From an uncultured virus (IMG/VR IMGVR_UViG_3300031227_000030) (Duplodnaviria; Heunggongvirae; Uroviricota; Caudoviricetes): a stretch of DNA of 64,000 nt. The stretch is taken from IMG/VR virus record IMGVR_UViG_3300031227_000030. One strand, written 5' to 3'. The notes beneath the pieces were generated by a model. The model worked only from the letters and a program-made list of their open reading frames with translations. It was not told where the DNA came from and did not search any database. Numbering within the stretch: position 1 is the stretch's first letter; each line of letters starts with the position of its first letter. A program made the position numbers and the translations under genes. Positions 7,196 to 36,246 of the stretch are shown piece after piece.

Positions 7196-8055
7196 AAAAT
7201 TGCTACCCCATTCCCATCACAAAAAATATCTAGGTTCTTTCTAGCAAGTTCAGATTTGCTGTTATTCTCAACAGTTAAGTTATTTTTTGAACTATCCTGA
7301 CCAATAGCTTTAAATTCATTTTGAAATAAATCCGATATTTCTTTATCAGGATTTGCTAAAAATAAAATATAATGACCACCTTGTTTTGTTATTGCCCAGT
7401 CTCCATCAATTTCAAGAAAATCTATTTCTTCAAGCTCCACTTCTTTAGGAAAAAGAATCATGTAAAATTTTTCAAAAATTTTAGGAGAAATATAGTTTTT
7501 ATTGCCTATCTCTTGCAGTTTATCTACTTGATTTTCTTTTAACTTAATAAAATACTTTATATCAACTCCTGCTTTTTTGCCCATAGCATAATTAAAATAA
7601 AAATCCTTTAAATCTTCCTCTATGTTTTGAGAAGATTCTGTTAAATTTTGATTTGAAGTTTCAACACTTTCTTCTTGTTTAGAGTCTTTCTTTTTCTTAG
7701 GATTTCCTTCTTTTATATAATCTACAGGGTTTTTATTATAGACATAAGTATAATCATTAGAAACCCCATCTCTTCTGTTAAAGTTATGATGTCCTTCCTG
7801 TATATTTCCTTTAGGGTTAGATTTAATAGTCTCCTCTAACCCATCTTCTTTTAATATACTAAAGATTTCTTTCATCATTGACCCAAGTTTCTCATCAAAT
7901 CTCTTAAACAAAAAAGACTCTAAGTTGTTCAAAACTTCAGGAATAAATCTTTCTTTATGAGAAACTTCTTCCTTTGTTTGGATAGCTTTAATTAGTCCTT
8001 CTTCTATTTCAGAAATCTCTTCACCTTCTTCTAAAAATATATTTATATTTGCCAT
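7192..8055 (-). CDS. Hypothetical head-associated protein
   Basis: 287-aa ORF between portal and MuF genes, with LIKA and TIKS motifs. Confidence 0.5.
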   Translation of the reverse strand: MANINIFLEEGEEISEIEEGLIKAIQTKEEVSHKERFIPEVLNNLESFLFKRFDEKLGSMMKEIFSILKEDGLEETIKSNPKGNIQEGHHNFNRRDGVSNDYTYVYNKNPVDYIKEGNPKKKKDSKQEESVETSNQNLTESSQNIEEDLKDFYFNYAMGKKAGVDIKYFIKLKENQVDKLQEIGNKNYISPKIFEKFYMILFPKEVELEEIDFLEIDGDWAITKQGGHYILFLANPDKEISDLFQNEFKAIGQDSSKNNLTVENNSKSELARKNLDIFCDGNGVAIL

Positions 8056-18070: not shown

Positions 18071-20029
18071 TTATTCTTTAACTTCTTCGATATCTTCTTC
18101 AGTTTCTTCTTTACTTTCATCTACCATATAAATCTCTTTCAGATCCTCTAATGAATTCATTTTAGCTTCATACTTTTCCATTAATTCAGGGTTAGAAGCT
18201 AGAACTTCTATTGTCTTGTCAAAGCCAACTGCTATCTTTTCCCCATCATCTCCATAATAAGTATTTCCTTCTTGTTTAATTAACCCAATATTAATGATTA
18301 ATTTAGCAAGTTCTTCTTCTGTGTTTATTACTCCATAATTGTAATGAAGATCAAACTCTGCTTCCCTAGAAGGGATTCCTATTCTATTTTTGACGCATTT
18401 TACCATTACCCTATGACCCATTTGAGAAGCTTTCCCAGTAATTGTTTTAGCCCCTTCGTTGAATATTTTAGTATCTTTTGCCCCTCTTTTTTCAAAAGAA
18501 AGTTCTAGATCTAACGCATGTTTATATGCTTGCCCTCCAGAAATAACGAACTTCTTTCCTGTCCAAGCTGCTGATGGATCCATATTAAGTCTAACTTGAG
18601 AAATAAAAAACCAAGTTATTCCATGTTCTCTACTAGGAGCAGTAATCCACCTAAGAGCTTTCGGTAAGTATTGAGATAAATCTCCCATTACATGAGCTTC
18701 TGATTGTTTAAGCTTCTGTTCTTTTGGTCCTCTCATTGCGTTTACTGAATCAATTACACAGGCTTTTAGATTAAACCCTTTCTTAACCAAAGGAATTAGC
18801 TCTCCATCAAAAAAATCAATAATATCTTTAGGGCGATTCGTTTGTCTTAACAGTAATCTCTCTTGCATTTGTTTATCAGGCATAAGAACATCTAACCAAT
18901 GTCTTTCAAAAGAATACTCTGTATCGAACCAAATTGCATATGCATCTTTGAATTTTTCAAGAATAGACTTTATACAAGAAAGAGTGAAAAACGACTTACC
19001 GCTATTATGGACAACTATCCCATTAGCTACGTAATTGTTGTAAGGATAAAGACATTTTATATCGTAAGTTTCTTTTTCTCCAACATATTCAATTTTTTTG
19101 ATTTTATCTAAGACAGAGATAAATCTTAAAAAATTATGGTTTTTAAGAGAATGAAGCTTATTATGTTCTTTGCCACTCATTTCTACTAAGTTTTCTATCA
19201 CATCATTTGAATGATTTTCGTCTAAATGATGGATATGTCTGTCTCTTGGTAAAATTTTTATATTAGCCTCAATTTCTTCCTTAGAAGCTGTGTTCAAAAA
19301 ACTTATATAATCTTGATAATCTAGATTATTTATAGATGCTTCATAAACCAATCTAGATCTTTTTATTCTACAATACTTATGTTTACCTGAACTATGCCAA
19401 TGGTTTGAAGGATGATATTTGACCATAACTTCAAAATACTTAAACACTTTTTTATCTTTTTTAAAGCGAGTATTGTTATGAATATAAATTTCATCTTCAA
19501 TTTTTAAATCCTTTAAAGATTTATACCCATCTTTTGTATAATATTTATGTTCTAAGGTAGAAATCAACTCTTTCCCCTCAAAAGTTGTAACTTTATAGCA
19601 ATCTTTAATTCCACACCTTACTACATCAGCGACTCTATTCATAAAAATACAACCCGCTTCATTTATCGAAGGAATAAGAAAAATAGCATCATCATTCTTT
19701 TGTTTATTTACATTTGTTCCTTTAATCCCTCCCCTAGACCCTTTCTCATAAATTTTATTAAATCTTTGATATAGCTTTTTAATTGTTCCGCCTTTGTTGG
19801 TTCTAGGTTTTCCTGTGGTAGAGCAAAAAACATCAAAATCTATAAAAGTGTTTTCATCTAAACAACTTTCAACACCTTCCATACAATAAAATCTTCCAGA
19901 CTTTATTCCTCCTCCCATTAGATAATTGACAGAAGGGCTTATTGTTTTAATTATATCTTTAGATGGACTAAAACTCGAAGACTGAACTAAATTCCCAAGC
20001 CCAAGAACTTTTTTGACAAAATCACTCAT
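18071..20029 (-). CDS. recA: RecA/UvsX-like recombinase interrupted by an intein (about 365 aa after splicing)
   Basis: Spliced P-loop GVES|SGKS, FDTEYSF, VIDSV, ISQVR, SGGQAYKH, VKNRIGIP. Confidence 0.92.
   Translation of the reverse strand: MSDFVKKVLGLGNLVQSSSFSPSKDIIKTISPSVNYLMGGGIKSGRFYCMEGVESCLDENTFIDFDVFCSTTGKPRTNKGGTIKKLYQRFNKIYEKGSRGGIKGTNVNKQKNDDAIFLIPSINEAGCIFMNRVADVVRCGIKDCYKVTTFEGKELISTLEHKYYTKDGYKSLKDLKIEDEIYIHNNTRFKKDKKVFKYFEVMVKYHPSNHWHSSGKHKYCRIKRSRLVYEASINNLDYQDYISFLNTASKEEIEANIKILPRDRHIHHLDENHSNDVIENLVEMSGKEHNKLHSLKNHNFLRFISVLDKIKKIEYVGEKETYDIKCLYPYNNYVANGIVVHNSGKSFFTLSCIKSILEKFKDAYAIWFDTEYSFERHWLDVLMPDKQMQERLLLRQTNRPKDIIDFFDGELIPLVKKGFNLKACVIDSVNAMRGPKEQKLKQSEAHVMGDLSQYLPKALRWITAPSREHGITWFFISQVRLNMDPSAAWTGKKFVISGGQAYKHALDLELSFEKRGAKDTKIFNEGAKTITGKASQMGHRVMVKCVKNRIGIPSREAEFDLHYNYGVINTEEELAKLIINIGLIKQEGNTYYGDDGEKIAVGFDKTIEVLASNPELMEKYEAKMNSLEDLKEIYMVDESKEETEEDIEEVKE
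19004..19864 (-). mobile_element. Intein (287 aa) with HNH homing endonuclease domain
   Basis: Starts C56 (CLDENT), block B-like STLEHKY, ends TYDI..NNYVANGIVVHN followed by Ser+1. Internal HNH motif IHHLDENHSNDVIENL..EHNKLH. Confidence 0.93.
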
Positions 20030-20520: not shown

Positions 20521-20772
20521 TTATAAAATATTTTCTCTTTTTATTTCAACAAAACATTTAGATTTATTATTCATTTTTTCTATTATCATAACTAAGTCTT
20601 TTATCTCTTTTTTTCTTAATTCCCCTAGATGTTGCTCTTTATACTCTTCGTACTTAGAGCCAACATCACTTTTAATAGGGTAAATAATTCTCCATTCTAT
20701 TCCAGACAAGATAGTTTTGTAAACAACCACTACCCTATAGAGAATATCAGAAGTATCTTGTGTTGCTAACAT
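20521..20772 (-). CDS. Hypothetical protein
   Basis: 83 aa; TAATG coupling with the SSB gene. Confidence 0.5.
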   Translation of the reverse strand: MLATQDTSDILYRVVVVYKTILSGIEWRIIYPIKSDVGSKYEEYKEQHLGELRKKEIKDLVMIIEKMNNKSKCFVEIKRENIL

Positions 20773-21584
20773 TATCCTCCTAAAATAGCGTCTAAACTTG
20801 ATGCTGGATCTTCATCAGCATTCTGTTCTTCTACGGATCTTGAGTCTTCTACAGGGGCTGTTTCTGTTTTTACCTTAATTGATTCACCTTTATCACTTAA
20901 TGGAGTTGCTTGAGGAAAACTAAAAGCGTCTTCTGGTTTAGACTGAGGGGTCTCTTCTTTGTTAATAATCTCTGAAATTTTGTCATATGAGATTTTAGGA
21001 TAAATAGCAGACAAATCATGAAGCTCAGTAATCTCTTTTAAAACACTCATATCAATTTCTGTTGGGTTTGGAGCTATTACCAAAGTGTATTCTGTTTTTA
21101 TTCCAAATCCAGTTTTTTTAACAATTAAATTTCTACCTGTTTTAATATCTGTAATATCTTGGCCTAACATTTGAATTTGATTAACAAGAGTTTCTTTTAC
21201 TGTTTTAGGAAGCTGTAAAATCTTATATTCACCTTTTTCATTTAAAGCATTAAATAAAAATCTTGTTTTCCTTGAAACGAGAGAAGCTTTCTTGTCATTT
21301 CCTTCTGACTTAAATTTTGCCCATTTTTCACAAAAAGGACATTTTCCTTCTAGTTCTGAAGTGCATAAGAAAGATCTGACTTTGCCAGAAGATGTTGTAT
21401 AAAAATGAACAACTATCTTTTCCCAAAACTTAGAGAGACCTTTTGCTGGGGGAAGAATTCTAAAAACATTGTTCTCTTCAGACTTAATCTTATGGAATTG
21501 ATAGTTAACCCTAGTTTCTTGAGCTTTTGCTTCTGTGTTTACTTCCTCTAACGAGGCTTTGCCAAAAATTTCTTCGAGTGACAT
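20772..21584 (-). CDS. gp32-like single-stranded DNA-binding protein
   Basis: FRILPP, H..C..CPFC, DIKTGRNL.VKKTG.G.KTEY and an acidic C-terminal tail. Confidence 0.82.
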   Translation of the reverse strand: MSLEEIFGKASLEEVNTEAKAQETRVNYQFHKIKSEENNVFRILPPAKGLSKFWEKIVVHFYTTSSGKVRSFLCTSELEGKCPFCEKWAKFKSEGNDKKASLVSRKTRFLFNALNEKGEYKILQLPKTVKETLVNQIQMLGQDITDIKTGRNLIVKKTGFGIKTEYTLVIAPNPTEIDMSVLKEITELHDLSAIYPKISYDKISEIINKEETPQSKPEDAFSFPQATPLSDKGESIKVKTETAPVEDSRSVEEQNADEDPASSLDAILGG

Positions 21585-21585
21585 A

Positions 21586-22329
21586 TTATTCTCCTTTTGT
21601 TTTTCTTTTTAAAAAACTCATTGTTGGAATGTTTTCTTTCAAAAAAGATTTTTTTATTAATTTAAATATTTTTTCAAACTTTTCATAAAAAACCTCTGTT
21701 TTCCCCTCCTTTTGTATTTCAAAGTCTGTTTTGATAAAATCATAGTCTGATAAACCTCTTAACCCATCATAACTCTCACCTCCTTTTATTTTTATTGTCC
21801 TATAGTATTTTCCAAAATAATTTTTAAGATACTCGTTTTCATAGTTATAGGTAATATCCCAAATGATATGAGTACCTGAAATTTTAGAAAGTTTTTCTGA
21901 ATATAAAGTAGCATAAGATTCAGCAAAAAATAACTTATAGGCATCTCTAATTATCTTAAACTCTACATTCTCCACTAAGTTAAAAATCGAAGAAGCTCCC
22001 ATTTCATATCTTCCATAAGGAATCATTGCTGGAGTAAAATCAGATTCATGATATAATGTTTTTCCCATTTCTCTTAAAATTTCTTTTATTTCTACCTTTC
22101 CTATTAAAATAGGAGGGTCAAACTTTTGATCACGAGAAGGATAGTTTGGATTATTCCCAATATCCTTAAAATTAAAAATATTAGAAATCATAGCCATTTC
22201 AAAATTCAAAAGAGAAGTTCTAGACTTTGCTTCAAAATTTTTAACAATATAATCTGCTAATGTTTTCTTTCCAGCTTTTTTCCCACCAATAATACCAAGA
22301 ATATAATTCATTTTAATCCTTCCATTCAA
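21586..22329 (-). CDS. Deoxynucleoside monophosphate kinase-like protein (divergent)
   Basis: N-terminal ILGIIGGKKAGKKTLADY P-loop and IIWDITYNYE (cf. DxRFxNE). Confidence 0.55.
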   Translation of the reverse strand: MNGRIKMNYILGIIGGKKAGKKTLADYIVKNFEAKSRTSLLNFEMAMISNIFNFKDIGNNPNYPSRDQKFDPPILIGKVEIKEILREMGKTLYHESDFTPAMIPYGRYEMGASSIFNLVENVEFKIIRDAYKLFFAESYATLYSEKLSKISGTHIIWDITYNYENEYLKNYFGKYYRTIKIKGGESYDGLRGLSDYDFIKTDFEIQKEGKTEVFYEKFEKIFKLIKKSFLKENIPTMSFLKRKTKGE

Positions 22330-25300
22330 TTTCGTTACAAATAAAGTTTAGATTATTGTTCCAAAGATTATTGTAACCGGTCATTTTTACCAAAGGTGCT
22401 TTGTTGTTTTTTAACAATCCCTTATATTTAATTAGTTCTTTTTCATATATTTTATACGTTTCTGGCCAAAGAGTTGCTCTAACTTTTTGAGATCCATTCT
22501 GAATCGTAATGAATCCCATACTTTTCCTCTCTTTTTTTGTCCTTATTTCTTTTACCTCCGAAAGCAGCCCTCCAATAATGTACTCTCTTTTTAAATTTTG
22601 CCTAACTGCAAGATATTTGTCACAGTCTCCAAACCAATCTCTAAACATTTGATAAAAATCCATTGGAAATGAAGGAAGAGCTTTTTGCCTCAATTGAAGC
22701 ATCTCTAGCTTATTCATAGATTTTATCTCAGAAGAGACTTTTGCTTTTTTTCTTTCTTTTGCAATTTTATATTCTAAATATTCTATATATTGATCTCTTG
22801 TCGCTTTATCTTCAAGATCTAATGACTTAAATAGCCCAGCAAAAATCAAATTCTTCATTACATCAGAGTCTACAATAGAGAGATTTATCCCAGAAGTCAA
22901 GAAGTCAGTTAAGGAAGTGAAATCTTTTTTTCTAGAATCTTTTATTTTTTTGATTTCTTTTAGAGCTACTGGACCAACTTGATTTACAACTGTTAACGGA
23001 GTCACTATCTTATCATTTCTAATAACAAAGTTTTCTTCAATAAGATTTACTGTTGGCTCAAGAAGATATGGCATAGCAAGAGGACAATATTTTTTCAAAT
23101 CATCTGAAGAAGAGTTTGACAAGACAGAGCACCACCATTCTAGAGGATAGTATACTTTTAGATATTGGCAAAGATAGGAAGTCATCGCATAAGCAGCTGC
23201 ATGAGATAAATTAAAAGAATACCCTGTAAAGGCATAAATCATGTTCCATAATTGATTTGCTTTTTTATCATCAATGTCAGGATGTTTTTTTCTTGTCCTA
23301 ATTATAAAATCTTCTTTATATTTCTTAAGCATCTCAGGTTTTTTCTTGCCCATAGCTCTTCTTGCCTCATCAGTTTCTTCACCGTTGAAATCTGCCAAAA
23401 CCTCAAGGGCTTTCATCATTTGCTCTTGATAAAGCATAACTCCATAAGTATCCTTTAAAACAGGCTCAAGAGAATTGTGGAAATAATCAACTGACTTCCT
23501 TCCTGATTTTCTATCAGCATAAGCAACATCCATTTTTAAATTAGTTATTCCTGGTCTTCCTAAAGAAAGAATGGCGGCCAATTCAAAGAGATTTTCTGTT
23601 TTTATTCTTGTAAGAAGTTGTTTTTCTAAATCTGTATTAGCTTGAAAGACAGTATCTGTCTTTGCTTTTTGAAACTCTTCAAAAACTTTTGGGTCTTCCC
23701 AATCAACATTGTAAGGATCAATTTCTTTCCCAGTTCGATCTTTTATTAATTGAAGGGCTCCTTGAATATCTTTCAATGTGTTTAGCCCTAAGAAATCAAA
23801 CTTTATTGCTCCCGCACGTTCACACCATTCCATTGTATATTGAGTATAACTTACTCCATTAGACCTCGCTAAAGGGATAAAGTTTTTTAAAGGTTTTCCT
23901 GTTATACAAACAGCTGAAGCGTGAATCCCTCTTTGTCTAGCATTGTCTATTAAATCTATTAATGGATCAGCTATTCTTTTATTATCAAATAGAAACTTTC
24001 TAACTTTTTCAGCTTCAGGAGATTTTAGGTAATCAATTGCCCATGTTTTCTCATCAACAGATCCAGGAGGAGTAGGGATTTCTCTAGTTATTGCATTAAG
24101 CTCAGAAAAGTTTTTCTCAGGATAGAAAACTCTAGCGATATCTTTAATAGAGGACTTTAATTTTAAATTCTGAGTTGTTCCTATTGAAGCAACAAACTCT
24201 CCTCCATATTTATTTATTAAATATCTTTTTATCATTGTTGGGTTACTAGAATCTATATCTACATCAGGAAGATGGTTTCCTAAAATTCTAGATTTATTTA
24301 TAAATCGATAAAAAGAAAGATCCCAATCTAAAGGATTAATATTCGTTATCCCCATTAAATAACAGAGTAAAGAACCTCCAGCAGAACCTCTGCCTATACC
24401 TACTAGAACATTTTCTCTTTTACACCACCTACAAAGATCTTCTAACAAAAGAAAATAGTTAGTTAGATCTGTTTTTCCATTATTCACTATAACTTGGAAT
24501 TCTTCTTTTATTCTATCAACATACTTATTTGTATTTCTAAATCTTGGACTTTTTTTGCAAATTTCTAACATTAATTTTTTAGGAAGCATCCCTTCTTCGT
24601 ATAAAGGATGTTCTTTTAGATTAACGGTAGGAAGAGACGGAGAAAGATTTAACTCAAGATCTTTACATTTATCTAAAATTTCAAGAGTGTTTAAACAATA
24701 CTTATCAAACATTGCTTTATCAATATACGGATGATTTTCTTGAAATTTTCCCCAAAGCTCTTCTTCAGATAACAGAGGGTTTTTACTGTATATTTTTTTA
24801 CCTAAAGAAGAATTTGATTTTATGAAGTTAAGATGCTTAACCCGTTGAGCTATATGTTGCTTTTCCCAAAGATAATAAGAGTTAGAGGAACAAATTACCT
24901 TTATGCTTAGTTGGTTACTAAGCTCTATGATCCTTTTGTTAACAATTTCTAAAGGGTTAGATCCATCTTTCCTAAGATCAATAAAAATATTCTGTTGGGA
25001 GTCCCAAACTTTAGATACATCATGCGGTAAAACTTCTAAATAGAAATCAGAACCAAATATAGCTTTTAAATCGCTTACAGTAATAAAGTCTATTTCGTCA
25101 TTTGATAAAATAGTCTTACCAACAAATCCCTTATGACCTCCAGAGATAACGATCAAACCTTCTCTATGAGCGCCTAAATCATTTAAACTAATCCTAGGTT
25201 CTAAGAAGAAATGGGATTTTTGCTCTGAACTTAATGTTGAAAGATTACATAAGTTTTGATATCCTTTTTCATTCTTAACAAGACAGACAATCTTTTGATA

Positions 25301-25558
25301 TGGGTCATAAGGATCTTTTTTTGACAAATCTTCTGATAGGTAAAAATCGCAGCCCATTACTATAGGGAACTTTTCTCTTTTTCCTAGTTCATATAACTCT
25401 AGAGCACAAGAAATATTAGCATCATCTGTAATAGAAATACCAGATAGATTCTTTTTCTTTGCTTCCTTTATCCATTCCTTTACTGTGCAAAGTCCACCTT
25501 TAAGTGAAAAATGACTATGGTTATGAAGACTTGAATAAGCCATATTAAAAACCTCCAA
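22313..25558 (-). CDS. dnaE: DNA polymerase III alpha subunit (family C)
   Basis: HNHSHFS PHP start, GRGSAGGSL, PDVDID, KFDFLGL, YQEQ, FNLSHAAAY, C-terminal OB fold. Confidence 0.96.
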   Translation of the reverse strand: MEVFNMAYSSLHNHSHFSLKGGLCTVKEWIKEAKKKNLSGISITDDANISCALELYELGKREKFPIVMGCDFYLSEDLSKKDPYDPYQKIVCLVKNEKGYQNLCNLSTLSSEQKSHFFLEPRISLNDLGAHREGLIVISGGHKGFVGKTILSNDEIDFITVSDLKAIFGSDFYLEVLPHDVSKVWDSQQNIFIDLRKDGSNPLEIVNKRIIELSNQLSIKVICSSNSYYLWEKQHIAQRVKHLNFIKSNSSLGKKIYSKNPLLSEEELWGKFQENHPYIDKAMFDKYCLNTLEILDKCKDLELNLSPSLPTVNLKEHPLYEEGMLPKKLMLEICKKSPRFRNTNKYVDRIKEEFQVIVNNGKTDLTNYFLLLEDLCRWCKRENVLVGIGRGSAGGSLLCYLMGITNINPLDWDLSFYRFINKSRILGNHLPDVDIDSSNPTMIKRYLINKYGGEFVASIGTTQNLKLKSSIKDIARVFYPEKNFSELNAITREIPTPPGSVDEKTWAIDYLKSPEAEKVRKFLFDNKRIADPLIDLIDNARQRGIHASAVCITGKPLKNFIPLARSNGVSYTQYTMEWCERAGAIKFDFLGLNTLKDIQGALQLIKDRTGKEIDPYNVDWEDPKVFEEFQKAKTDTVFQANTDLEKQLLTRIKTENLFELAAILSLGRPGITNLKMDVAYADRKSGRKSVDYFHNSLEPVLKDTYGVMLYQEQMMKALEVLADFNGEETDEARRAMGKKKPEMLKKYKEDFIIRTRKKHPDIDDKKANQLWNMIYAFTGYSFNLSHAAAYAMTSYLCQYLKVYYPLEWWCSVLSNSSSDDLKKYCPLAMPYLLEPTVNLIEENFVIRNDKIVTPLTVVNQVGPVALKEIKKIKDSRKKDFTSLTDFLTSGINLSIVDSDVMKNLIFAGLFKSLDLEDKATRDQYIEYLEYKIAKERKKAKVSSEIKSMNKLEMLQLRQKALPSFPMDFYQMFRDWFGDCDKYLAVRQNLKREYIIGGLLSEVKEIRTKKERKSMGFITIQNGSQKVRATLWPETYKIYEKELIKYKGLLKNNKAPLVKMTGYNNLWNNNLNFICNEIEWKD

Positions 25559-25757
25559 TATTTTTAAGAATTCCGTGATGTCTTGGATTACTCGTTATTG
25601 TTTCTCCATTTACAAATGTTTTTTTAGTATTATCTTTAATATTAAATATTTTCTTGATCTCTTGTTCTTCATTCCAAAGCTCCCAAGATTTTTTAGCTTT
25701 TTTAATAGCCAACTCGACATCTGTTTCATTTAAAAAATAGATATTTTCACTATTCAT
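25545..25757 (-). CDS. Hypothetical protein
   Basis: 70 aa, overlapping the primase and dnaE genes. Confidence 0.5.
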   Translation of the reverse strand: MNSENIYFLNETDVELAIKKAKKSWELWNEEQEIKKIFNIKDNTKKTFVNGETITSNPRHHGILKNIGGF

Positions 25758-26683
25758 TTTAAAACTCCCTCAAGATAGTTAGGACTATATTTTTGAGCTG
25801 AATAAATATATTTAGAAGCCTCTAGGTAGTTGCAATCTCCTAAGTCCTTAAGGTGCTTTGGTAAAATAACTCTAAATAGCTCAAGAGGTGTCGATAAACT
25901 ATATGCCATTGATTTAACGGCTTTGATTTCCGATGGATCTATCCCAATAACTATTTCTTTAAGATTTTTAAGATTTAAGATAAGCTGTTTTTGTAAAGGA
26001 GAAAGTGTCTTCCCTAATAGAGCGACAACAGGGTAAATAGAAGATTTTATACAATCTATTGGCCCCTCAACTATTACCAATTTTACTGCATTTTTAATTT
26101 TATCATAATTATATAGGAACTTAGATTTGTCAAACCCTGGGCAAGTAAAAGCCTTAACTCTACTTAACCCAGAAATATCTCTTCCTTGCCATCCAACACA
26201 TTTTCCATCAAAATAAGCTGGAAAAATTATCCTTTTCATTCCTCTAGAATATCTTATATCAAATTCTTCAGACTTTTCTGGAGTAATCCCTCTTCTATCT
26301 AAATAATCAGAGAACTCGTCTTCTTTTGAAAAGTCTACTTTAGGGAATCTTTCTATGTTAATTTCTTTTTTAATTTCTACTGAGAGACTAGAAAGACCAC
26401 TATTTCCTAAGTTTGGGATTAATTGACGCTTTGTAAGTGTTCTCTGTCTTTCTCCAGCTTTTTTAATAGCTTCCGAATAGGGTATCTTTTCGTATTCTTT
26501 AATAAATTTAGAAAATCTCCCCTTTACTTGACAACTCCAACAATGAAAAACTCCGTTATCTTTCTTAATATATAGTTTTCTTTTTTTGCCACAAGCAAAG
26601 CAAGTTAAGGAATAGTCATTTCTTTCTTCTTTAAACTCAATTCCTTGAGATATTAAATAATTTTTTACTTTATCATCTAGCAT
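25754..26683 (-). CDS. DNA primase (Zn finger + TOPRIM)
   Basis: CFAC..HCWSC, YLDRRG, VGWQGR, IVEGPID. Confidence 0.88.
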   Translation of the reverse strand: MLDDKVKNYLISQGIEFKEERNDYSLTCFACGKKRKLYIKKDNGVFHCWSCQVKGRFSKFIKEYEKIPYSEAIKKAGERQRTLTKRQLIPNLGNSGLSSLSVEIKKEINIERFPKVDFSKEDEFSDYLDRRGITPEKSEEFDIRYSRGMKRIIFPAYFDGKCVGWQGRDISGLSRVKAFTCPGFDKSKFLYNYDKIKNAVKLVIVEGPIDCIKSSIYPVVALLGKTLSPLQKQLILNLKNLKEIVIGIDPSEIKAVKSMAYSLSTPLELFRVILPKHLKDLGDCNYLEASKYIYSAQKYSPNYLEGVLK

Positions 26684-26691
26684 AGTTCCTC

Positions 26692-28185
26692 CTATTTTAT
26701 ATCTAATATTTCATCCATTATCTCTCCACCAGGCCTAGAGTCATACTTCGGATCAACTTCTTCATATGGATTCTCTATTCTTGTTTGAACTAACTTTTTA
26801 AGCTTTTGTTCTTCTCCTTGCTCTACTTCTATTTCCTCATAAGCTAGTTCAGGACCAAACATATTATAGTAGCTCCAGTCACACTGGTATCTTACGGCTA
26901 AATTAGCTTTAGTGTCTCTTTGCTTATCTAAACAAAAAACAATTTTGTCATCTCTTGTATCTTGAATTGATTTAGAAATTGTAATAACTTGATCTGCATC
27001 TTGAACAATTCCAAAACATTCAGAAATATCTGTCATCCTTAAGATGTCATTGTTTTTCCTAGTTCTTTTCATGGCATCTCTGTTTCCTTGAGCTGCAGTA
27101 ATTGAAACAACATCTAAGCTATCGGAGATAGATTTTAATCCTTGATAAATCTCTTGGTGCACAAACCTTTTTTCTTGATACTTACTTTTTAAAGATAATT
27201 TTTGTCCATAATCATCTATGACTACATCGAAATCAAACTCTTGTTTCTTTATGGAACAATAATCTATAACTTCTTCTACAGGGGTTCTAAATTTTTTCAT
27301 CTTTTTTGCATGAAGATTCTCTTTTAATAATTTAAGCGCATAATCTTTTCGATATACTTCGTCTTTATCTTCAAACTTATAGTTTGGGTCAAATAATTTT
27401 TCATATGGAATTTTACTAAACCTACTAAAGAAACGTCCATAAACTTGATCATCATTACCTTCATGGTAGATATAGAGAACTTTATATCCAGCCCAAATAA
27501 TATGGTAAGCTAAATTTATGAAGAAACTAGTTTTCCCAACGTTAGAGACACCTAATATAGTTGTAAAAGTTTGTCTAGGAAGACCGCCAAACATTGCTTT
27601 GTCAAAGGTAGGGATTCCTGTTGGTACTCTTCTTTTTGAAATATTTTTTGCTCTTAATAAAAATTCATCAAAATTTGTAAAATCTAAAATATCATCTTTT
27701 TCAAAGTTAACTCCATAGAGCTCCCCTATCTTTTCTCTAGTTAACTCATAAGCACTTTCATGTCTTTCTTGATTATATAAATTAGTTGTCTGAATATACG
27801 TTTCACTAAATATTGCTCGTCTTATGAAACCTGTTAATTCTTTTCTCAGATAATCTGTATCAGAGTAAAGACAATTTAAGACGTCTTTAATGCAAGTTTC
27901 ATATAAAATTCTCTCTACAACATCAAATTTTGAAATTTCATAATCTAAAGTAGCTATCTCAGGTATTTTTTGATATTCAAGATAATGGGCAGAGATTTTA
28001 GAGAACAACCAAGAAAGTTCTTGAGAGACAAAGTAAGAAGGTTTTAAGTAAAGAGAACATCTCCCTAAAAATTGAAAGTCTTTAAGCATCAAATTTAATA
28101 TAGATTCTTGGAGTCTTTTATCGAAAGGGAACTCAGAGACAGAGTGCTCTGATTTTTTCTCAATAATATCATTTTCTGAAGACAT
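26692..28185 (-). CDS. DnaB-like replicative helicase
   Basis: GVSNVGKT, VIDDYG, TAAQGNR, DISECFG...AD, KQR. Confidence 0.88.
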   Translation of the reverse strand: MSSENDIIEKKSEHSVSEFPFDKRLQESILNLMLKDFQFLGRCSLYLKPSYFVSQELSWLFSKISAHYLEYQKIPEIATLDYEISKFDVVERILYETCIKDVLNCLYSDTDYLRKELTGFIRRAIFSETYIQTTNLYNQERHESAYELTREKIGELYGVNFEKDDILDFTNFDEFLLRAKNISKRRVPTGIPTFDKAMFGGLPRQTFTTILGVSNVGKTSFFINLAYHIIWAGYKVLYIYHEGNDDQVYGRFFSRFSKIPYEKLFDPNYKFEDKDEVYRKDYALKLLKENLHAKKMKKFRTPVEEVIDYCSIKKQEFDFDVVIDDYGQKLSLKSKYQEKRFVHQEIYQGLKSISDSLDVVSITAAQGNRDAMKRTRKNNDILRMTDISECFGIVQDADQVITISKSIQDTRDDKIVFCLDKQRDTKANLAVRYQCDWSYYNMFGPELAYEEIEVEQGEEQKLKKLVQTRIENPYEEVDPKYDSRPGGEIMDEILDIK

Positions 28186-28198
28186 ATTACTCCTAAAA

Positions 28199-29872
28199 TT
28201 ATATTGAATTTTCTAAAGAATTATCTTGTACTTTCCCTGAACTTCTGATCACAAGGCCTCCTCCTTTCAGTAGCCCACAAGCGATTGAAATAGCATTTTT
28301 AAGAGCAGTTCTAACAACTTTATACGGATCAACAATTCCATCTTCTTTTAAGTCTACTATTAATCTATTTACTCCGTCATAACCTTTCCATCCATTAGTA
28401 AGAGCGTCTTTAGAGTAAAGATCTTCGTAAACTTGCAAAGCCATAGTTTCTGGATTATCTCCACAATTCTCGGCAATTTGTCTAAAAGGAGACTGAAGAG
28501 CTTGAATTAAAACTCCCCAAGCTAAATAAGACGGAGAATTTTTTTCAAAATTTTGTTTATAGTAAGAAACATTTAAAAGAGCTTTCCCTCCTCCAGGGAC
28601 AATACCTTCTTGAATTGCTGCTCTTGTAGCATGAATAGAGTCAATAACTCTATCTTGCTTCTCTTTCATCTCAAAATCTGTAGCTCCTCCAACACCAATT
28701 ATAGCAATTCCTCCAGTTAATTTTCCAAGTCTTTCTTTCCAATTTTCTTTCTCAAACTCAGATTCAGCAGTCTCTATTTGTTTTTCACATATCTTAACTC
28801 TTGCGTCCATAATCCTCTCTGTTGTTTGTCCTTCATAGATTGTCGTTTTATATCTATCTCCAACTATCTTCATACATCTTCCAAATTCATATTTTCCCGC
28901 AATCTCTTCCCACTTTATTCCTGGGAAAGGAGAGATGATATCTCCTCCACAAAAAGCAGCTAAATCTTCTGCAGTATAAATTCTAGAGTTAGGAGAACCT
29001 ATCATTGGAATTTTAACTGGAAACCAAATCATTCCTTGTTCTAGTCTATTTCTTGCCATCCAAGCTAAGGCATCTCCAACAATATCATGAGCAATAATAC
29101 AAATATGAGGTTTCTTCCCTTCTTCTAATTCATTAACTTTAGAAACAAAATGAACTAACCAAATAGGGTCTGAAATGATTGCATTAAAAACAACAATATA
29201 CGGAGAGTCTAAAACAGTTTGCTGTCTAGGTGGATCTGTTACAAAAAAAGTCCCTGGTTCTTTAAAAGAAGCAAATCCTGAGTCTAACTGGTAACCCTCA
29301 ATATGACGTAATGATGTCCCTAGTCCAAAGCCTTCCTCTAATTGGATAACACCATTTGACCCAACCAAATCAAAAGCTTCACAGACTGTATTAGAGATAT
29401 CTTCATCTCCATTACAAGAGATCTTAGCAATATTCAGAAGATCTTCTTGTCCTTTAACTTCTTCTTTAACTTTTTTTAATTTTTCAATAATAAATGGTTC
29501 TAGTTTTTGGATTTCTGTCACTAACTTTTGCGGGGTAATTGCCCCAATTTGGATAAGCTTTAAGCCTTTCTCATAAATAGCCTCAGTTAAAACAATTGCA
29601 GTTGTTGTTCCATCTCCAGCTTCTGTGTTTGTTTTTTTTGCAGCTTCTTTAATAGATTGCATAATTAAGTTTATCTGAGGATCCTCAGAGAAACAATTTT
29701 CTGACACAGTTACTCCATCTTTTGTTGAGAGAGGAGGTAGTTTGTCTCTTTCAAGTAAAATTGGTAAACCATTAGGTCCCAAAGTAGTTTTGACTATCCC
29801 AGATAATTGATTAAGAGCTTTTGTAGCACTTTGGTAATACTCTTCTTTTCTAATGATTAAGTCATTTGACAT
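28199..29872 (-). CDS. groEL: Phage-encoded group I chaperonin
   Basis: TLGPNG, TKDGVTV, AGDGTTTA, GIVPGGG, GIVDPYKV. Confidence 0.95.
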   Translation of the reverse strand: MSNDLIIRKEEYYQSATKALNQLSGIVKTTLGPNGLPILLERDKLPPLSTKDGVTVSENCFSEDPQINLIMQSIKEAAKKTNTEAGDGTTTAIVLTEAIYEKGLKLIQIGAITPQKLVTEIQKLEPFIIEKLKKVKEEVKGQEDLLNIAKISCNGDEDISNTVCEAFDLVGSNGVIQLEEGFGLGTSLRHIEGYQLDSGFASFKEPGTFFVTDPPRQQTVLDSPYIVVFNAIISDPIWLVHFVSKVNELEEGKKPHICIIAHDIVGDALAWMARNRLEQGMIWFPVKIPMIGSPNSRIYTAEDLAAFCGGDIISPFPGIKWEEIAGKYEFGRCMKIVGDRYKTTIYEGQTTERIMDARVKICEKQIETAESEFEKENWKERLGKLTGGIAIIGVGGATDFEMKEKQDRVIDSIHATRAAIQEGIVPGGGKALLNVSYYKQNFEKNSPSYLAWGVLIQALQSPFRQIAENCGDNPETMALQVYEDLYSKDALTNGWKGYDGVNRLIVDLKEDGIVDPYKVVRTALKNAISIACGLLKGGGLVIRSSGKVQDNSLENSI

Positions 29873-30303: not shown

Positions 30304-30732
30304 TTATTTTAATAATAAAATTGATTTACCAGTAAGAAGCTTCTTCCCCCCTTTTTCTAGCTCTTTTCTAAGCTTCCCTTTTGCTGTCTTAACTTTTTTA
30401 AGCTGATAGAGTTGCTGAGAAGTTGGTACTGAGATTATATCAATTCCTTCTCCTTTTGGAAGAATCTTTTCTCCTTTTCTTAAAGCTGCTGAAATTAAAC
30501 ATCTTTCAGGACCTGTAGGAGAGAGACGGACAGGGTTAGCATGACAAGGATAAGCATAATCTCCTTCAGGAATCTCTCGTCCAGTTATTACACAAGTTCT
30601 ACTTTTTGACAAACGAATTGGGTTTAAAAGACGAGCACGTTTGTTGGGAATGATAAAAAGATAACTATATCCAACAACGTCTAATAACTTCTGTCTAGCT
30701 TCTGAGATAACAAGTCTCTTTTCCTTTTTCAT
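30304..30732 (-). CDS. Hypothetical basic protein
   Basis: 142 aa with SD AAGGAG; RTCVITGREIPEGD resembles a zinc-finger knuckle. Confidence 0.6.
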   Translation of the reverse strand: MKKEKRLVISEARQKLLDVVGYSYLFIIPNKRARLLNPIRLSKSRTCVITGREIPEGDYAYPCHANPVRLSPTGPERCLISAALRKGEKILPKGEGIDIISVPTSQQLYQLKKVKTAKGKLRKELEKGGKKLLTGKSILLLK

Positions 30733-30745
30733 AGAGTTCTCCTTT

Positions 30746-30788
30746 TTACTTATTTATTACTTATTTATTACTTATTTATTACTTATTT
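30746..30788. repeat. 11-bp tandem repeat TTACTTATTTA, about 3.9 copies
   Basis: Directly visible; the last copy contains the stop codon of the upstream gene. Confidence 0.9.
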
Positions 30789-31339
30789 TTTAAATAATTT
30801 ATTATTTTTCCTACTTTAGAAAAAGTACAGGTCCCCATTTTTGAGCCAATTAGTTTTGAAAATTCTATTAAGTTAATTTTATCATTTTGATAATCTTTGA
30901 ATGCAGAAATCTCTTCTTTTGAAGGGACAAAGGTTCTCCCACCAACAAACTTTGTTCGTAAGTTACAATATTTTTGGACAAAAGAGAGATATTCTTTTGG
31001 AGGAAGAAATTCTTTAACGATTCTAGATCTAAATAAAAAGTTATCAAGTTTGACAATTTCTTTAGGATCTTTTGATCTTTTTTCTCCTTCTCTATTTGAA
31101 ACAGGAATTCTATTCTTTTTGGTAGAGTTAGTAAAAACTGATCTTTTAAAAAGTCTATCTAACTTTTTAGCGAATTGCTCTTTATGGATTCCAGGATGGA
31201 ATTCAAAAATCCTTATGACATCTTTAATAGCTTTGTCATTTCCAATAAAACTTTTAGTTTTGTTTGGATAAGTTTTCTTAAGATAATGCGCAACTTCTTC
31301 TTGTCTGGCCAAGTTTTCTTTATAAGTTAACTTCTTCAT
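30779..31339 (-). CDS. Hypothetical basic protein (possibly DNA-binding)
   Basis: 186-aa Lys-rich ORF. Confidence 0.55.
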   Translation of the reverse strand: MKKLTYKENLARQEEVAHYLKKTYPNKTKSFIGNDKAIKDVIRIFEFHPGIHKEQFAKKLDRLFKRSVFTNSTKKNRIPVSNREGEKRSKDPKEIVKLDNFLFRSRIVKEFLPPKEYLSFVQKYCNLRTKFVGGRTFVPSKEEISAFKDYQNDKINLIEFSKLIGSKMGTCTFSKVGKIINYLKNK

Positions 31340-32435: not shown

Positions 32436-32453
32436 ATTTTTCCTCCCTTATTT

Positions 32454-32520
32454 AATCTTTAGAACATTATATTTAATTTGTAAATAGAAATCTTTATGTA
32501 TTTTTTAATTTTTGTAAATA
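32454..32520 (-). promoter_or_regulatory. Tandem pair of sigma70-like promoters (TTTACA-N16/17-TAAAGAT)
   Basis: Two copies of TATTTACA-N16/17-TAAAGATT directly upstream of the leftward arm. Confidence 0.55.
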
Positions 32521-32860
32521 TTCAGACCAAGGCTTTTATCATTTTGATAAAAAACTTTTGACAGACTTTCTTAAAAAAAAAGCAGGGTATCTTGTTGGAA
32601 TTACACAGTTTATCATTATGATAAATCTTGTTTTTTTAAAAAAAAGTGAAGGATTTCAACAACAAAGACTCTTTTTGAAAAACAGCGATATTCTGTCAAT
32701 AGTTTTTTTCATTAAAAAACACTTAAAATTAAGGCAGTTACAAAAAAAAAGTGATGATTTTGGAAAAACTATGTTAAACCCCCCTCTGCACTCCCCCCAA
32801 GAATATCTAAAAAAAATAACTAATAAGAAAACTTAAAAATTCTTCTTTTCTTCTCCCCCT

Positions 32861-33192
32861 CCTCCCCCCCCTTTGGGGGGTCTAGGCCGAAGGCCTCAAA
32901 AAGCACCAAGCCGAAGGCTTTAGGGGGGAGGGCAAAGCCCGATGGGGGGCGAGAGCCCCCCTGAACGTATAGAAGAAAACAATTAAGGTAATTTAAATAT
33001 TTGAAAAAAAAACAAATAAAAAAAAATATCTTTAATGGAGAGGTCTGTCTAAATTCTTTAGGCCATTTTATAATTGGGGGACTTAGTCCCCCAAACCCCC
33101 TCTGAACCTTCGGTTCGTTGGGGGGGCAAAGCCCCCCGTATAAGGGGGCAGACCCCCTGACCCCCTATGCGGGACTCCGAAGGAGATCCCGC
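32861..33192. other. Two clusters of GC-rich mini-hairpins flanking an AT-rich spacer; candidate replication origin
   Basis: Ten short inverted repeats at the strand switch (see findings). Confidence 0.55.
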
Positions 33193-33298
33193 CCTGAAGA
33201 AACCCCTAAATAATTTTTTTCTTGAAATAAGTTAAGATAATCTGTTATTCTTCTTCTGTTAAAACAAAAGTTAATCTGTTTATTTTTTAGGAAAAAAT

Positions 33299-34687
33299 TT
33301 GGAATATATTTTTTCAATAGATAACTCTTTTTCAAAAATAGATCCTCTGCTTCCAGAGAGGATAAGATTGAAAATAGATAAAAAAACTTCTTTTCTGAAT
33401 AAGAGTAAGAGTTTTTATTTAACTGATCCAGATTGGTTAGCTTATGAACATCTGTTTAGTTATGAAAGTCAATTTTTCCCAACAGGATTAGGGAAAGAAG
33501 TTGCTTCTATTCTAAAAGAAGAAAATATCTCATTTAAAATTTTAGATAAAAGAAAAGTCCCTCCTTTTTCTTTTAATAGAGATTTTTCCAGACAACCATA
33601 TGAATTAAGACCATATCAAGAAGAAATAGTTAAGAGATGTCTTAAGTATAGAAGAGGAGTTGTTGAATCTGTGACGGGTTCAGGAAAAACTCTCATGGCT
33701 TTACATTTGATAAATAAGTTAAGAAGAAATGTTTTATTCATTGTTCCTACTATAAATATAGCAGAACAAACCCATTTTTATTTTTCAAAACATTACCCTA
33801 AGAACACTGTTGGCTTTGTTGGAGGAGGGAATTTTGTAGTTAATCCTATTACGATTGCTTTACCTCAGTCTTTATTAAAGCTTCCTCTTGATTTTTTTAA
33901 GAAATTTGGTTGTTTAATGATAGACGAATCTCACCATGCTTCTGCTCTTACTATTAGGGATTTAAATTATAAAAAATTTAATGGAATATATTTTCGTTAT
34001 TTTCTAACTGGAACAAATTTTCGAAATGATGGTAGCGATTTAGCTTTAAAAGGTACTGTGGGGAATGTTATAGCTTCTTATGGTATCCATCAAGCTATTA
34101 GAGAAAAGTTTCTGGTTGCTCCTGTTTTTAGGATTTATTTTTTTCATTCTGAAAATAATCAACTTAAAAATGTTTATAGCGAAGAGTACAAACAAAGTTT
34201 AGTCTATAATGATGATTATCATAAAGTTGTTGCTTCTCTGGGCAATAAATTATTAAAACAAGGAAAGCAGACTATTATTTTTGTAGAAGAGATTGCTCAT
34301 GGTAAAATTTTAAATAAGTTAATTCCAGGATCTTATTTTATTTGTGGAGAAAGGTTGTCTAATAATAATAGAGAGATTCTCCAAAAATTTAATAAAAAAG
34401 AAATTAAATTAATTATTGGCACATCTGTTATTGGGGAAGGGGTAGATACTGTCCCCGCTGAATATGGAATTTTTGCTGGAGGAGGAAAGGCTAAATCTGA
34501 AGTTATTCAAAGGATTGGGAGACTTTTAAGACCCTCCCCAGGAAAGAAAAATGCTTATATCATTGATTTTGCTCATGTTAATACTAATTTTCTCTTTAAA
34601 CATTATCAACAGCGGCTTAGTATCTATAAGGCTTATAACTCTTTCATAGATCATAAGCATATTTCTGCTAAAGAACTCAATAAATAA
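33299..34687 (+). CDS. SF2 helicase (UvsW/XPB-like)
   Basis: LRPYQ, TGSGKT, DESHH, TGT, GEGVD, QRIGRLLR. Confidence 0.9.
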   Translation: MEYIFSIDNSFSKIDPLLPERIRLKIDKKTSFLNKSKSFYLTDPDWLAYEHLFSYESQFFPTGLGKEVASILKEENISFKILDKRKVPPFSFNRDFSRQPYELRPYQEEIVKRCLKYRRGVVESVTGSGKTLMALHLINKLRRNVLFIVPTINIAEQTHFYFSKHYPKNTVGFVGGGNFVVNPITIALPQSLLKLPLDFFKKFGCLMIDESHHASALTIRDLNYKKFNGIYFRYFLTGTNFRNDGSDLALKGTVGNVIASYGIHQAIREKFLVAPVFRIYFFHSENNQLKNVYSEEYKQSLVYNDDYHKVVASLGNKLLKQGKQTIIFVEEIAHGKILNKLIPGSYFICGERLSNNNREILQKFNKKEIKLIIGTSVIGEGVDTVPAEYGIFAGGGKAKSEVIQRIGRLLRPSPGKKNAYIIDFAHVNTNFLFKHYQQRLSIYKAYNSFIDHKHISAKELNK

Positions 34688-34728: not shown

Positions 34729-36246
34729 ATGGATAATATTACTTTAGAAAAAACTTTCCAGTTTCATGTTCCTATTGATTTAATTAAAGCAGGAGAGGAT
34801 GAAAATGGAGATTATAAAATTGCTGGTTTAGCTTCGACTGAGCATGAAGATTTGCAAGGAGAGATTGTTAGAAAAAATGGCCTTGACATTTCTTATTTAA
34901 AAGCAGGTCGAGGTCTTTTTAATTTTGATCATCAAAAAGGCCCTCAGAATATTATTGGGTTAATAGAAGATGCAAAAATAGACAAGGCTGGTCTTAAAGT
35001 AGAAGGGTATCTTTTTAGACATCAGCCTTCTGCCCAGGGTTTTGTTAATATTTTAAAATCACTTAAAGATAAAGATAAGAATCGTGTTCAGATGTCTATA
35101 GAAGGAAAGATAGTAAAAAGAGGAGGAGAAACTGGAAAGACAATTGAGCAAGCTAGAGTTGAAAAAATTGCTTTAACATTAGATCCTGTTAATCCCCATA
35201 CTTATGCTAATTTAGCGAAGTCTCTTGTCTCTAATGTAGAGGCTAATCCGTCAGAGGCCCAAAAAAAATCTGGAAATTATAAAAAAGATCACATTAGTTA
35301 TAAGGGGCTAGATATCTCTATTGAAAGCCCTAAAGGATCTGTTCGTTCAGGTAAATCTAGATATGGAGTTGAGTGGAAGACAGAGATGAAACATGATTAT
35401 GGATATTTCAGAGGAATAAAAGGAAAAGATAAAGATCATCTTGATGTTTTTGTTGGAGATAAAGATTCTGACGATATTTTTGTTATAGATCAGGTTGACC
35501 CTAAGACAGAGAAGTTTGACGAACATAAAGTAATGTTAGGTTTTGAGTCAGCAAAAGAGGCCAAAGATGCTTATCATGCTAATTATGAGAAAAATTGGCA
35601 AGGGTTCAATGGAATGTCTCAACTGACATTTAATGATTTTAGAGATTGGACAAAAAAGGGAGTAGTTAAAGATCCCATAAAGAAAGATTTAGAAGAAGCT
35701 CAAACTCCAGAACTTGGTGCAGGAGATTTGGGATTGATGGAGTCTCAGTCAAAAGCAGATAAAAAACATGCTGATGGAATGAAATTAGAAGGAATTAAGA
35801 AAAACGAAGGTAGGAAAATTAAAATTCTTGAACAGGATTTGAGGCATATTCTAAATCAAATAAATAAATTAATGGTAGAGAAAGATATTAAAAATCTTTC
35901 AACAGAAAATTCTACTCTTCAAAATGTTCCTAATCCTCCTAAAATCGAAGTTGATGAAAATAAATTTAGAAATTTAATGTTTGTTCTTACAGAGTTAATT
36001 ATTGAGGAATCTACCGAGGTAGATAAGGCTCTTACTGCTGGTACAGGGTATACTGGATCCCCAAGCGCAATGTCAGGAGGAGCAGCACTTGGAACAGAAT
36101 CTTTAGATTTAAAACCTAAAAAAATTAGGAAGAGTTTAGACACAGAAGAGCTTGTCAAAGAAGCTTTAGAATTTATAAAAGAATACCCTCCTGCCTATGT
36201 TAGTGGAGTAATTAGTTCTGTTTGTAAAAAAGATGTTTGCTCATAG
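34729..36246 (+). CDS. Prohead protease fused to an InPase-like domain and a capsid-N-terminus-like peptide
   Basis: IAGLAST..DLQGE, NFDH, MSIEG and ALTLDPVNP (HK97-type protease), then GNYKK...DYGY...DHLDVFVG...FDEHKVMLGF. Confidence 0.85.
   Translation: MDNITLEKTFQFHVPIDLIKAGEDENGDYKIAGLASTEHEDLQGEIVRKNGLDISYLKAGRGLFNFDHQKGPQNIIGLIEDAKIDKAGLKVEGYLFRHQPSAQGFVNILKSLKDKDKNRVQMSIEGKIVKRGGETGKTIEQARVEKIALTLDPVNPHTYANLAKSLVSNVEANPSEAQKKSGNYKKDHISYKGLDISIESPKGSVRSGKSRYGVEWKTEMKHDYGYFRGIKGKDKDHLDVFVGDKDSDDIFVIDQVDPKTEKFDEHKVMLGFESAKEAKDAYHANYEKNWQGFNGMSQLTFNDFRDWTKKGVVKDPIKKDLEEAQTPELGAGDLGLMESQSKADKKHADGMKLEGIKKNEGRKIKILEQDLRHILNQINKLMVEKDIKNLSTENSTLQNVPNPPKIEVDENKFRNLMFVLTELIIEESTEVDKALTAGTGYTGSPSAMSGGAALGTESLDLKPKKIRKSLDTEELVKEALEFIKEYPPAYVSGVISSVCKKDVCS

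Follow-up and report, generated by a model that had tools for sequence, protein, structure and literature searches.

A compact island of ten GC-rich hairpins (positions 32861-33192) was found in the genome of an uncultured myovirus. It is tentatively proposed that this single-copy, lineage-specific element acts in cis at the level of DNA on separated strands, most likely as a replication origin at which single-stranded DNA is primed. The window, i.e. the whole stretch of DNA that was analysed, comprises 64,000 nucleotides of the IMG/VR record IMGVR_UViG_3300031227_000030. Judged from its sequence, the island is real, strange in its context and a matter of DNA, with roles as an origin and as a genome end that are both putative. 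In the literature covered by the search, which left most subscription papers outside, no account of a comparable array from any large tailed phage was found. Few origins and end signals have been mapped in large myoviruses, and the island, if functional, would offer a compact and synthesisable test substrate for the phage DnaG/SSB pair or for the terminase.

From its predicted genes, the window belongs to an uncultured myovirus with a SPO1-like capsid and a bacterial-type replisome. The capsid protein is 31-33% identical to those of CP-51 and SPO1, and portal, terminase, sheath and baseplate genes were also identified. Genes for replication and repair code for DnaE, a DnaG-type primase, DnaB, SSB, RecA, SbcCD and GroEL. 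Complete relatives have genomes of 109-118 kb. The Herelleviridae core genes for capsid, portal, sheath, primase, DnaB and SbcCD are present. The core set of that family includes DNA polymerase I (PMC7414437), in place of which the window encodes DnaE, so that the Herelleviridae set is not fully matched. A tblastn search with the terminase returned three matches only, the best being Myxococcus phage Mx1 (28%) and the others one small virus present in two records.

The replication module (22313-29872, - strand) comprises GroEL, DnaB helicase, DnaG-type primase (25754-26683) and DnaE polymerase, with which the SSB gene (20772-21584, -) is listed. The island sits in the gap between GroEL and a gene for an SF2 (UvsW-like) DNA helicase (33299-34687, +; phrog_16, E 1e-72, with weaker matches annotated as uvsW), and several small lineage-specific ORFs lie between GroEL and the island. 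The non-coding gap itself (32436-33298, 863 bp) reaches from the leftward small ORFs to the helicase and is the sole large-scale strand switch of the window. Genes run on the - strand leftward of the island and on the + strand rightward of it, as expected from the divergence point of transcription that had been proposed here. An ORF of 92 residues inside the gap (32558-32836) has no Pfam match and is probably spurious.

All ten hairpins of the original prediction were recovered at their positions. With perfect stems of at least 4 bp and loops of 3-4 nt as definition, 32861-33192 holds ten hairpins. Dinucleotide shuffles (n=2000) average 2.1 and never exceed 7, so that none reached ten. Each cluster contributes five (cluster 1: shuffle mean 1.5, p=0.002; cluster 2: shuffle mean 1.4, equalled by 0/2000 shuffles). 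The DNA folding z-score of 32840-33210 is -5.9. Most of this signal is carried by cluster 2 (-6.0 on the + strand, -4.6 on the - strand), cluster 1 being weaker (-2.3 and -1.5, respectively). The two clusters have a GC content of 68% and 65% in a window of 33%; the top values for windows of the same length elsewhere, 56% and 55%, are below both. Triloops closed by C-G make up eight of the ten hairpins, in line with the prediction, and those at 32944 and 33143 have 4-nt loops.

The island is present once in about 66.7 kb, made up of the 64-kb window and about 2.7 kb more of record G001. Contigs from three runs, one of them independent and two flagged as possible sources of the record, cross the island with zero differences; it is therefore genuine sequence and not an assembly artefact. 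Record G001 showed no variation with respect to the window across cluster 2. The listed contigs of run X4 do not extend over the island, an observation that carries no weight. Among the datasets listed as containing this phage, most are labelled as salt-lake metagenome and none is of RNA, which is uninformative as to expression.

Cluster 1 is preceded by three unpaired C-runs on the + strand (32779-32859, starting at 32779, 32793 and 32855); they belong to the unpaired C-runs, missed before, that are scattered from 32779 to 33206 beyond the ten hairpins. Hairpin 1 (32866-32880) presents a C-AAA-G loop on the - strand. Hairpins 2 (32884-32896, +; AGGCC-GAA-GGCCT) and 3 (32908-32920, +; AAGCC-GAA-GGCTT) follow, both with a C-GAA-G triloop. 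Hairpin 4 (32930-32940, +) has a C-AAA-G loop, and hairpin 5 (32944-32961, +) contains GCGAGAGC, which follows the GCGNNAGC mini-hairpin pattern (PMC13037366, available part), with TGAA next to it. The proposed pairing of 32861-69 (CCTCCCCCC) with 32923-31 is indeed an exact complement, yet it competes with hairpins 1 and 4.

The AT-rich spacer between the clusters, also anticipated, extends over 112 nt (32962-33073) and is 79% AT. Its 66-nt core is 88% AT, within the top 0.13% of the window, and no stable fold was detected in the spacer (z +0.45), which is a candidate unwinding element. An eleventh, weak hairpin (33047-33063) had been overlooked; it shows an A-T-closed GAA loop on the - strand and one G-T pair on the + strand. 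Cluster 2 consists of hairpin 6 (33074-33094; 9-bp stem, TTA/TAA triloop), hairpin 7 (33104-33116; C-GAA-G triloop on the - strand), hairpin 8 (33121-33137, +; 7-bp stem, C-AAA-G loop), hairpin 9 (33143-33158, +; 4-nt loop, with a C-run at 33161 that allows an alternative register) and hairpin 10 (33169-33192, +; bulged stem of 10 bp with a C-GAA-G triloop, and CCTGAAG after it). Hairpins 4-5 resemble hairpins 8-9 on the same strand with borderline significance (p=0.059).

To the left of the island, an inverted TTGACA-containing repeat (32549-32570 and 32687-32708) and three A-run-GTG repeats (at 32573, 32638 and 32743) were observed; possibly they are divergent promoter or operator sites. A promoter scan gave 18 sites versus 19.7 expected and was uninformative. 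Further left, the ORF at 30779-31339 (-) codes for an all-helical protein of 186 residues that belongs to a family of 21 matches with a conserved TNNAG motif. This protein was considered as a possible binding protein, but its confident model (pLDDT 89) gave no fold or family match. For the ORF at 30304-30732, a comparison with proteins of similar length revealed relatives within this phage only. A tandem 11-nt repeat, TTATTACTTAT, at 30743-30786 overlaps the end of the ORF at 30779-31339, and the contigs of all four runs break within it, at 30759-30775.

Loops of the types C-GNA-G, C-GNNA-G or C-AAA-G, assigned by an automatic rule, were found in 7/10 hairpins of the island and in 2/33 elsewhere in the window (Fisher p=1.2e-4). 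In the records of eight relatives, they amount to 36 of 643 hairpins. Reading hairpin 1 in its triloop register raises the count of stable loops in the island to 8/10. Four C-GAA-G, one C-GAGA-G and two to three C-AAA-G loops make up the tally, so that the island holds GNA and GNNA loops closed by C-G on short GC stems, as is typical of DNA mini-hairpins. Sequences such as GCGNAGC and GCGNNAGC are described as unusually stable DNA mini-hairpins to which SSB binds poorly, and mini-hairpins occur at the priming site of phage G4, in RSF1010 ssiA (CCGAAGG) and in N4 promoters (PMC13037366, available part). The CCGAAGG motif is contained in hairpins 2, 3, 7 and 10. Their GAA loops are located three times on the + strand and once on the - strand, and as read from the sequence they cannot form a C(UUCG)G or C(GAAG)G RNA tetraloop, the next pair being a mismatch. 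Since stable loops occur on both strands and the GAA hairpins are unable to form RNA tetraloops, the loops of the island fit stable DNA mini-hairpins, and the earlier claim of a DNA rather than an RNA structure is supported.

The region also folds well as RNA (z -6.7, + strand), the loop of hairpin 5 is of the GNRA type and hairpin 3 resembles a terminator on the - strand. A structured RNA, leader or terminator array governing the divergent operons is nevertheless very improbable. Eight of the ten loops are triloops, the four GAA/TTC ones lack a UUCG register, and strong loops are found on both strands. Hairpin 3 is the only terminator-like one, a T-tail being absent from the other nine. No family reached the gathering score in the Rfam search, and the search for tRNA and tmRNA gave none. 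Hardly any credence can be given to hairpin promoters of the N4 type, read by an RNA polymerase on single strands, or to a G-quadruplex or R-loop switch. With their stems of 4-5 bp, the C-GAA-G hairpins are reminiscent of the promoter hairpin of N4, whose early promoters likewise have a short stem and a GNA triloop closed by C-G (PMC13037366, available part), but no RNA polymerase, and thus no virion RNA polymerase as in N4, was found among the 52 proteins scanned of this incomplete genome. The - strand is rich in G-runs, most of which are locked in stems. A G-quadruplex had been named as an alternative in the original prediction, and it lost ground here, as no four-tract motif of G3+ is present in the region even with loops of up to 12 nt.

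Among characterized systems, the G4 and RSF1010 mini-hairpin priming signals come closest to the island, and by this analogy a priming role is putative. The complementary-strand origin of phages G4, alpha3 and St-1 and the RSF1010 ssiA/ssiB sites share with it the GCGNNAGC and CCGAAGG mini-hairpins, and G4 in addition uses a DnaG-type primase, which is also encoded here. Precedents for the priming sites are GCGAAAGC at phage G4 and CCGAAGG in RSF1010 ssiA (for all of these, PMC13037366 and PMC8567376, available parts). One to three hairpins are present in these systems, which are small single-stranded DNA phages or a plasmid, in contrast to the 10-11 hairpins in a large double-stranded DNA myovirus. 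Moreover, ssiA and ssiB form an inverted pair served by RepB'. The window has no significant inverted symmetry (cluster 1 versus cluster 2: score 19, null mean 24.6, p=0.95 in module permutations), and no RepB'-type primase was found in it. Because both the inverted pair and a RepB'-type primase are missing, the island is assigned to neither system.

For the proposed priming origin, the following sequence of events can be envisaged. The AT-rich spacer would melt, aided by divergent transcription or a helicase. The exposed strands would then snap into GNA, GNNA and AAA mini-hairpins that resist coating by SSB, as suggested by the computed folding and by the exclusion of SSB from hairpins of the G4 type (PMC13037366, available part). 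The DnaG-type primase of the phage may prime beside the hairpins, with the CTG(A) words found after four hairpins of the + strand as possible start sites, and DnaB and DnaE might subsequently take over. Priming need not be symmetrical and may be asymmetrical, because most of the strong loops and the CTG words are on the + strand.

Several observations speak for the priming origin. The spacer that separates the clusters belongs to the most AT-rich part of the window, as in an unwinding element, and the island is flanked by the replication module and the SF2 helicase. In the four GAA hairpins the core CC-GAA-GG is constant; their outer pairs vary yet still pair, such that stems differ while pairing and loop are kept. 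CTG is the start word of DnaG in E. coli. It follows hairpins 5, 6, 9 and 10 on the + strand, the start word of this primase being possibly a different one, and the 350 nt before the helicase hold CTG eight times versus CAG once. Such a CTG bias is not general among the relatives. CTGAA occurs four times each in L087 and L096 and three times in the window within 350 nt upstream of the helicase; the other 31 loci have two copies at most.

The original prediction had suggested a cruciform-based bidirectional origin, a primase site or a packaging signal. These functions are plausible, but the bidirectional origin has lost both of its expected supports. Cumulative GC skew, which had been proposed as a check, does reach its minimum at the island, but the sign of the skew goes with the coding strand, in relatives as much as in the window, and the minimum was rejected as evidence for an origin. 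Overall GC skew on the coding strand is +0.16 and +0.17 in the two arms. Helicase genes that oppose their neighbours keep, on the coding strand, the neighbours' skew sign at four-fold sites (pooled -0.19 versus -0.15, 18 loci). In complete relatives, two of which (G005, G006) are almost wholly one-directional, skew tracks gene direction. Because skew follows the coding strand, the divergence of gene direction, which probably arose from an inversion, is no evidence for an origin either. This outcome takes support away from an origin and is still compatible with one. The other expected support was inverted symmetry of the clusters of the ssiA/ssiB type, which is not significant at the p value of 0.95 given above. 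No iterons, in the sense of a 10-mer present three times, were found in the 1.2 kb upstream of the window's helicase. No initiator gene was identified among the window proteins of this incomplete genome, nor any HTH or initiator match in the neighbouring ORFs.

The functional reading had originally been tied to conservation of the hairpins in relatives and to a replication signal; on the side of conservation, the island proved to be absent from all relatives compared, which at 40-51% protein identity are too distant to infer loss of function. No comparable island was found in 156 related loci, this phage's own aside, and none in those helicase gaps of relatives that were inspected or at the strand switch before the capsid genes. 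The records of eight relatives, seven of them covered end to end and the eighth over 40 of 48 kb, likewise contain no island, and no 400-nt stretch in them has more than one such loop. None of the relatives carries a copy that can be aligned for covariation; those at 52-56% capsid identity entered the analysis as proteins.

In the same gap, distant relatives show an anatomy like that of an origin, which is a lead in favour of this reading. An HTH gene is located at or beside the GroEL-helicase gap in L105, L115 and Myxococcus phage Mx1, and in L113, where a weak lambda O-like profile was detected (E 5e-5); in L104 an HTH was recognized by eye. The gap of L105 adds a 10-mer in four copies and three G/C-run hairpins, and that of L115 a 10-mer in three copies. 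Mx1 (OR576727.2) and the uncultured L105 share with the window the order GroEL, gap, SF2 helicase; Mx1 in addition has DnaE and the closest cultured terminase, and L105 has G/C hairpins and iterons in its gap. Unlike the window, in which no such gene was found, both have a small wHTH gene at the gap, and the gap of Mx1 is devoid of a hairpin island. In L105, a 170-kb phage, the stretch 6853-7800 (the L185 region), between GroEL and the SF2 helicase, combines the wHTH gene with G/C-run hairpins and four copies of a GTGCTACTTAGAC-type repeat, and from its sequence it is a clear origin candidate. In another relative (L362, 5409-7186, record G010), 1.8 kb of non-coding DNA contain G/C runs together with a G/C hairpin that has a long loop, a candidate terminus or origin.

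Such relatives are in the minority: repeated 10-mers upstream of the helicase were detected in 5/57 loci versus 19/572 control windows, and the window is without them. G/C-run hairpins within 700 nt upstream of the helicase were found in 13/58 loci versus 81/1019 control windows, a comparison that is confounded by setting non-coding against mostly coding DNA among related genomes. All 13 cases are in loci of at least 48% GC, and none in the AT-rich closer relatives. It is somewhat doubtful that a large double-stranded DNA myovirus with a bacterial-type replisome uses a dense array of single-stranded DNA mini-hairpins, of the sort found in small single-stranded DNA phages and IncQ plasmids, to initiate replication or to mark the end of its genome, this array having replaced the wHTH-plus-iteron site of its distant relatives.

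Instead of an origin, the island could be a genome-end or packaging signal, the G/C-run clusters being recognized or cut by the terminase. The two clusters have the same orientation and a distance of about 195 bp; they could be the borders of a short direct terminal repeat, or indicate a pac site by a block of small early genes. The cutting and duplication of long terminal repeats are still poorly understood (PMC13595956, available part). In its make-up, the island resembles the repeat ends of herelleviruses, as far as sequence comparison can tell. The right ends of the terminal repeats are G/C-run islands in 6/7 Herelleviridae phages, which are not all independent (SPO1 and CampHawk are one genus, and the boundary of K is annotated as inferred); CP-51 and A9, having no annotated repeat boundary, were left out of this count. 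Per 120 nt at the right end, five G/C runs were counted in SPO1 (reached by 0/409 background windows), four in CampHawk (0/22), K (0/18), A511 (0/34) and BigBertha (0/29), and three in Grass (0/32). The two runs of phiAGATE, reached by 3/34 background windows, are not exceptional. The clusters of the window hold six and eight runs per 120 nt versus a maximum of four elsewhere in the window. As at the ends of the six herelleviruses, these runs form a non-coding island by small genes. The right end in SPO1 (13,185, inferred) is the densest G/C-run site of its first 50 kb and holds CCCTCCCCCCTAAA, a 14-nt sequence that is identical just inside the right ends of the SPO1 and CampHawk repeats and on the - strand of the window at 32919-32932, of which it is the exact complement. 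This match was reached by 2/300 and 4/300 shuffles and by 0/100 other SPO1 windows, but the 14-mer is of low complexity and was noticed post hoc. The SPO1-like capsid (about 31-33% identity) and the resemblance between hairpins 4-5 and hairpins 8-9 on one strand (p=0.059) are in favour of this explanation as well, as are tandem GAA-triloop hairpins near the terminase gene in several unrelated phages. Taken with the counter-evidence, a genome end is rather unlikely. By tblastn the terminase has no detectable similarity to that of SPO1, its best match being Mx1 (28%), and the polymerase is DnaE rather than polymerase I. The Herelleviridae ends contain no arrays of GNA triloops, and their GGGTA-like junction motif is absent here. 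Complete relatives have no such non-coding island (at best 3-4 runs per 120 nt in G005, G006, G008, G009 and G010). Adjacency of tandem GAA hairpins to a terminase gene, defined as a gene within 3 kb with only longer ORFs scanned in the 80/102 IMG/VR matches with flanks, showed no clear excess (8/35 non-coding matches, in six families, versus 6/45 inside ORFs). The sole independent contig over the island has a depth of 6.4 compared with 6.2-7.3 for its neighbours, i.e. no doubling, at the crude level of contigs. Finally, record G001 begins at 32959, inside hairpin 5, which would suit an end but is equally explained by sequencing dropout, since this too is expected to break contigs at hairpins. 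By analogy with the G/C-run islands that mark SPO1-like terminal-repeat ends, origin and terminus could even be one structure.

A serious rival that had not been considered originally, although an unlikely one, is that the island is an accretion of GC hairpin modules, selfish or largely without function, which duplication and template switching brought together in an intergenic gap that tolerates them. It would account for the absence of the island from every relative examined (40-51% protein identity) and for modules that are alike in direct orientation. Yeast mitochondrial GC clusters and MITE-like modules are likewise short, lineage-specific GC-rich palindromes in AT-rich DNA (PMC4478555, available part), but they are dispersed and polymorphic. 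Here a single locus was found, with no second copy in about 66.7 kb and no variant within the island in the contigs compared or, across cluster 2, in G001. At least 120 stretches in unrelated viruses hold GGGGGGCAAAGCCCCCC, and most of those read are lone intergenic hairpins. The IMG/VR pattern scans, in which 80 loci with flanks were taken from each of at least 120, 102 and 95 matches, revealed no whole-island homolog besides this phage's own record, and BLAST against phages and plasmids gave short chance matches only, with no homolog of the whole element. An ORF in the gap of two relatives, L093 and L100, is TnpB-like, by eye only and without a Pfam or PHROG match. At the island itself there is no convincing terminal inverted repeat or target duplication, the matches being of 7-8 nt only. 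The maintenance of 65-68% GC in a genome of 33% GC suggests selection, which argues against functionless modules.

A number of further observations were made on these elements. The ORFs in the GroEL-helicase gaps of L093 (6443-7396) and L100 (6059-7234) code for 317 and 391 residues, respectively. Repeat-boundary G/C-run islands of herelleviruses were located in L478 (13015-13504) and in L479, L480, L481, L582 and L583. At several herellevirus repeat ends, a common junction resembling CTACC-CNGG(G)TA precedes an A/T tract. The G/C-run islands at the repeat ends of six herelleviruses could help to predict genome ends from sequence. In unrelated tailed phages, tandem GGCC-GAA-GGCC hairpins lie outside coding sequence and close to terminase genes (L388, L436, L445, L395, L429, L438, L376 and L440).

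Elsewhere in the window, a RecA/UvsX-like recombinase gene (18071-20029, -) is split by an intein with HNH-like matches. A protein of 505 residues (34729-36246, +), encoded before the scaffold-like and capsid genes, carries an inserted InPase domain of the polyvalent-protein type and is probably the prohead protease. A coding repeat of about 100 nt is present in four copies at 1024-1435, in a gene that is probably tail-fibre-like. At about 51132, next to a G/C-run hairpin at 51136, record G001 falls out of register with the window, probably by an insertion or deletion.
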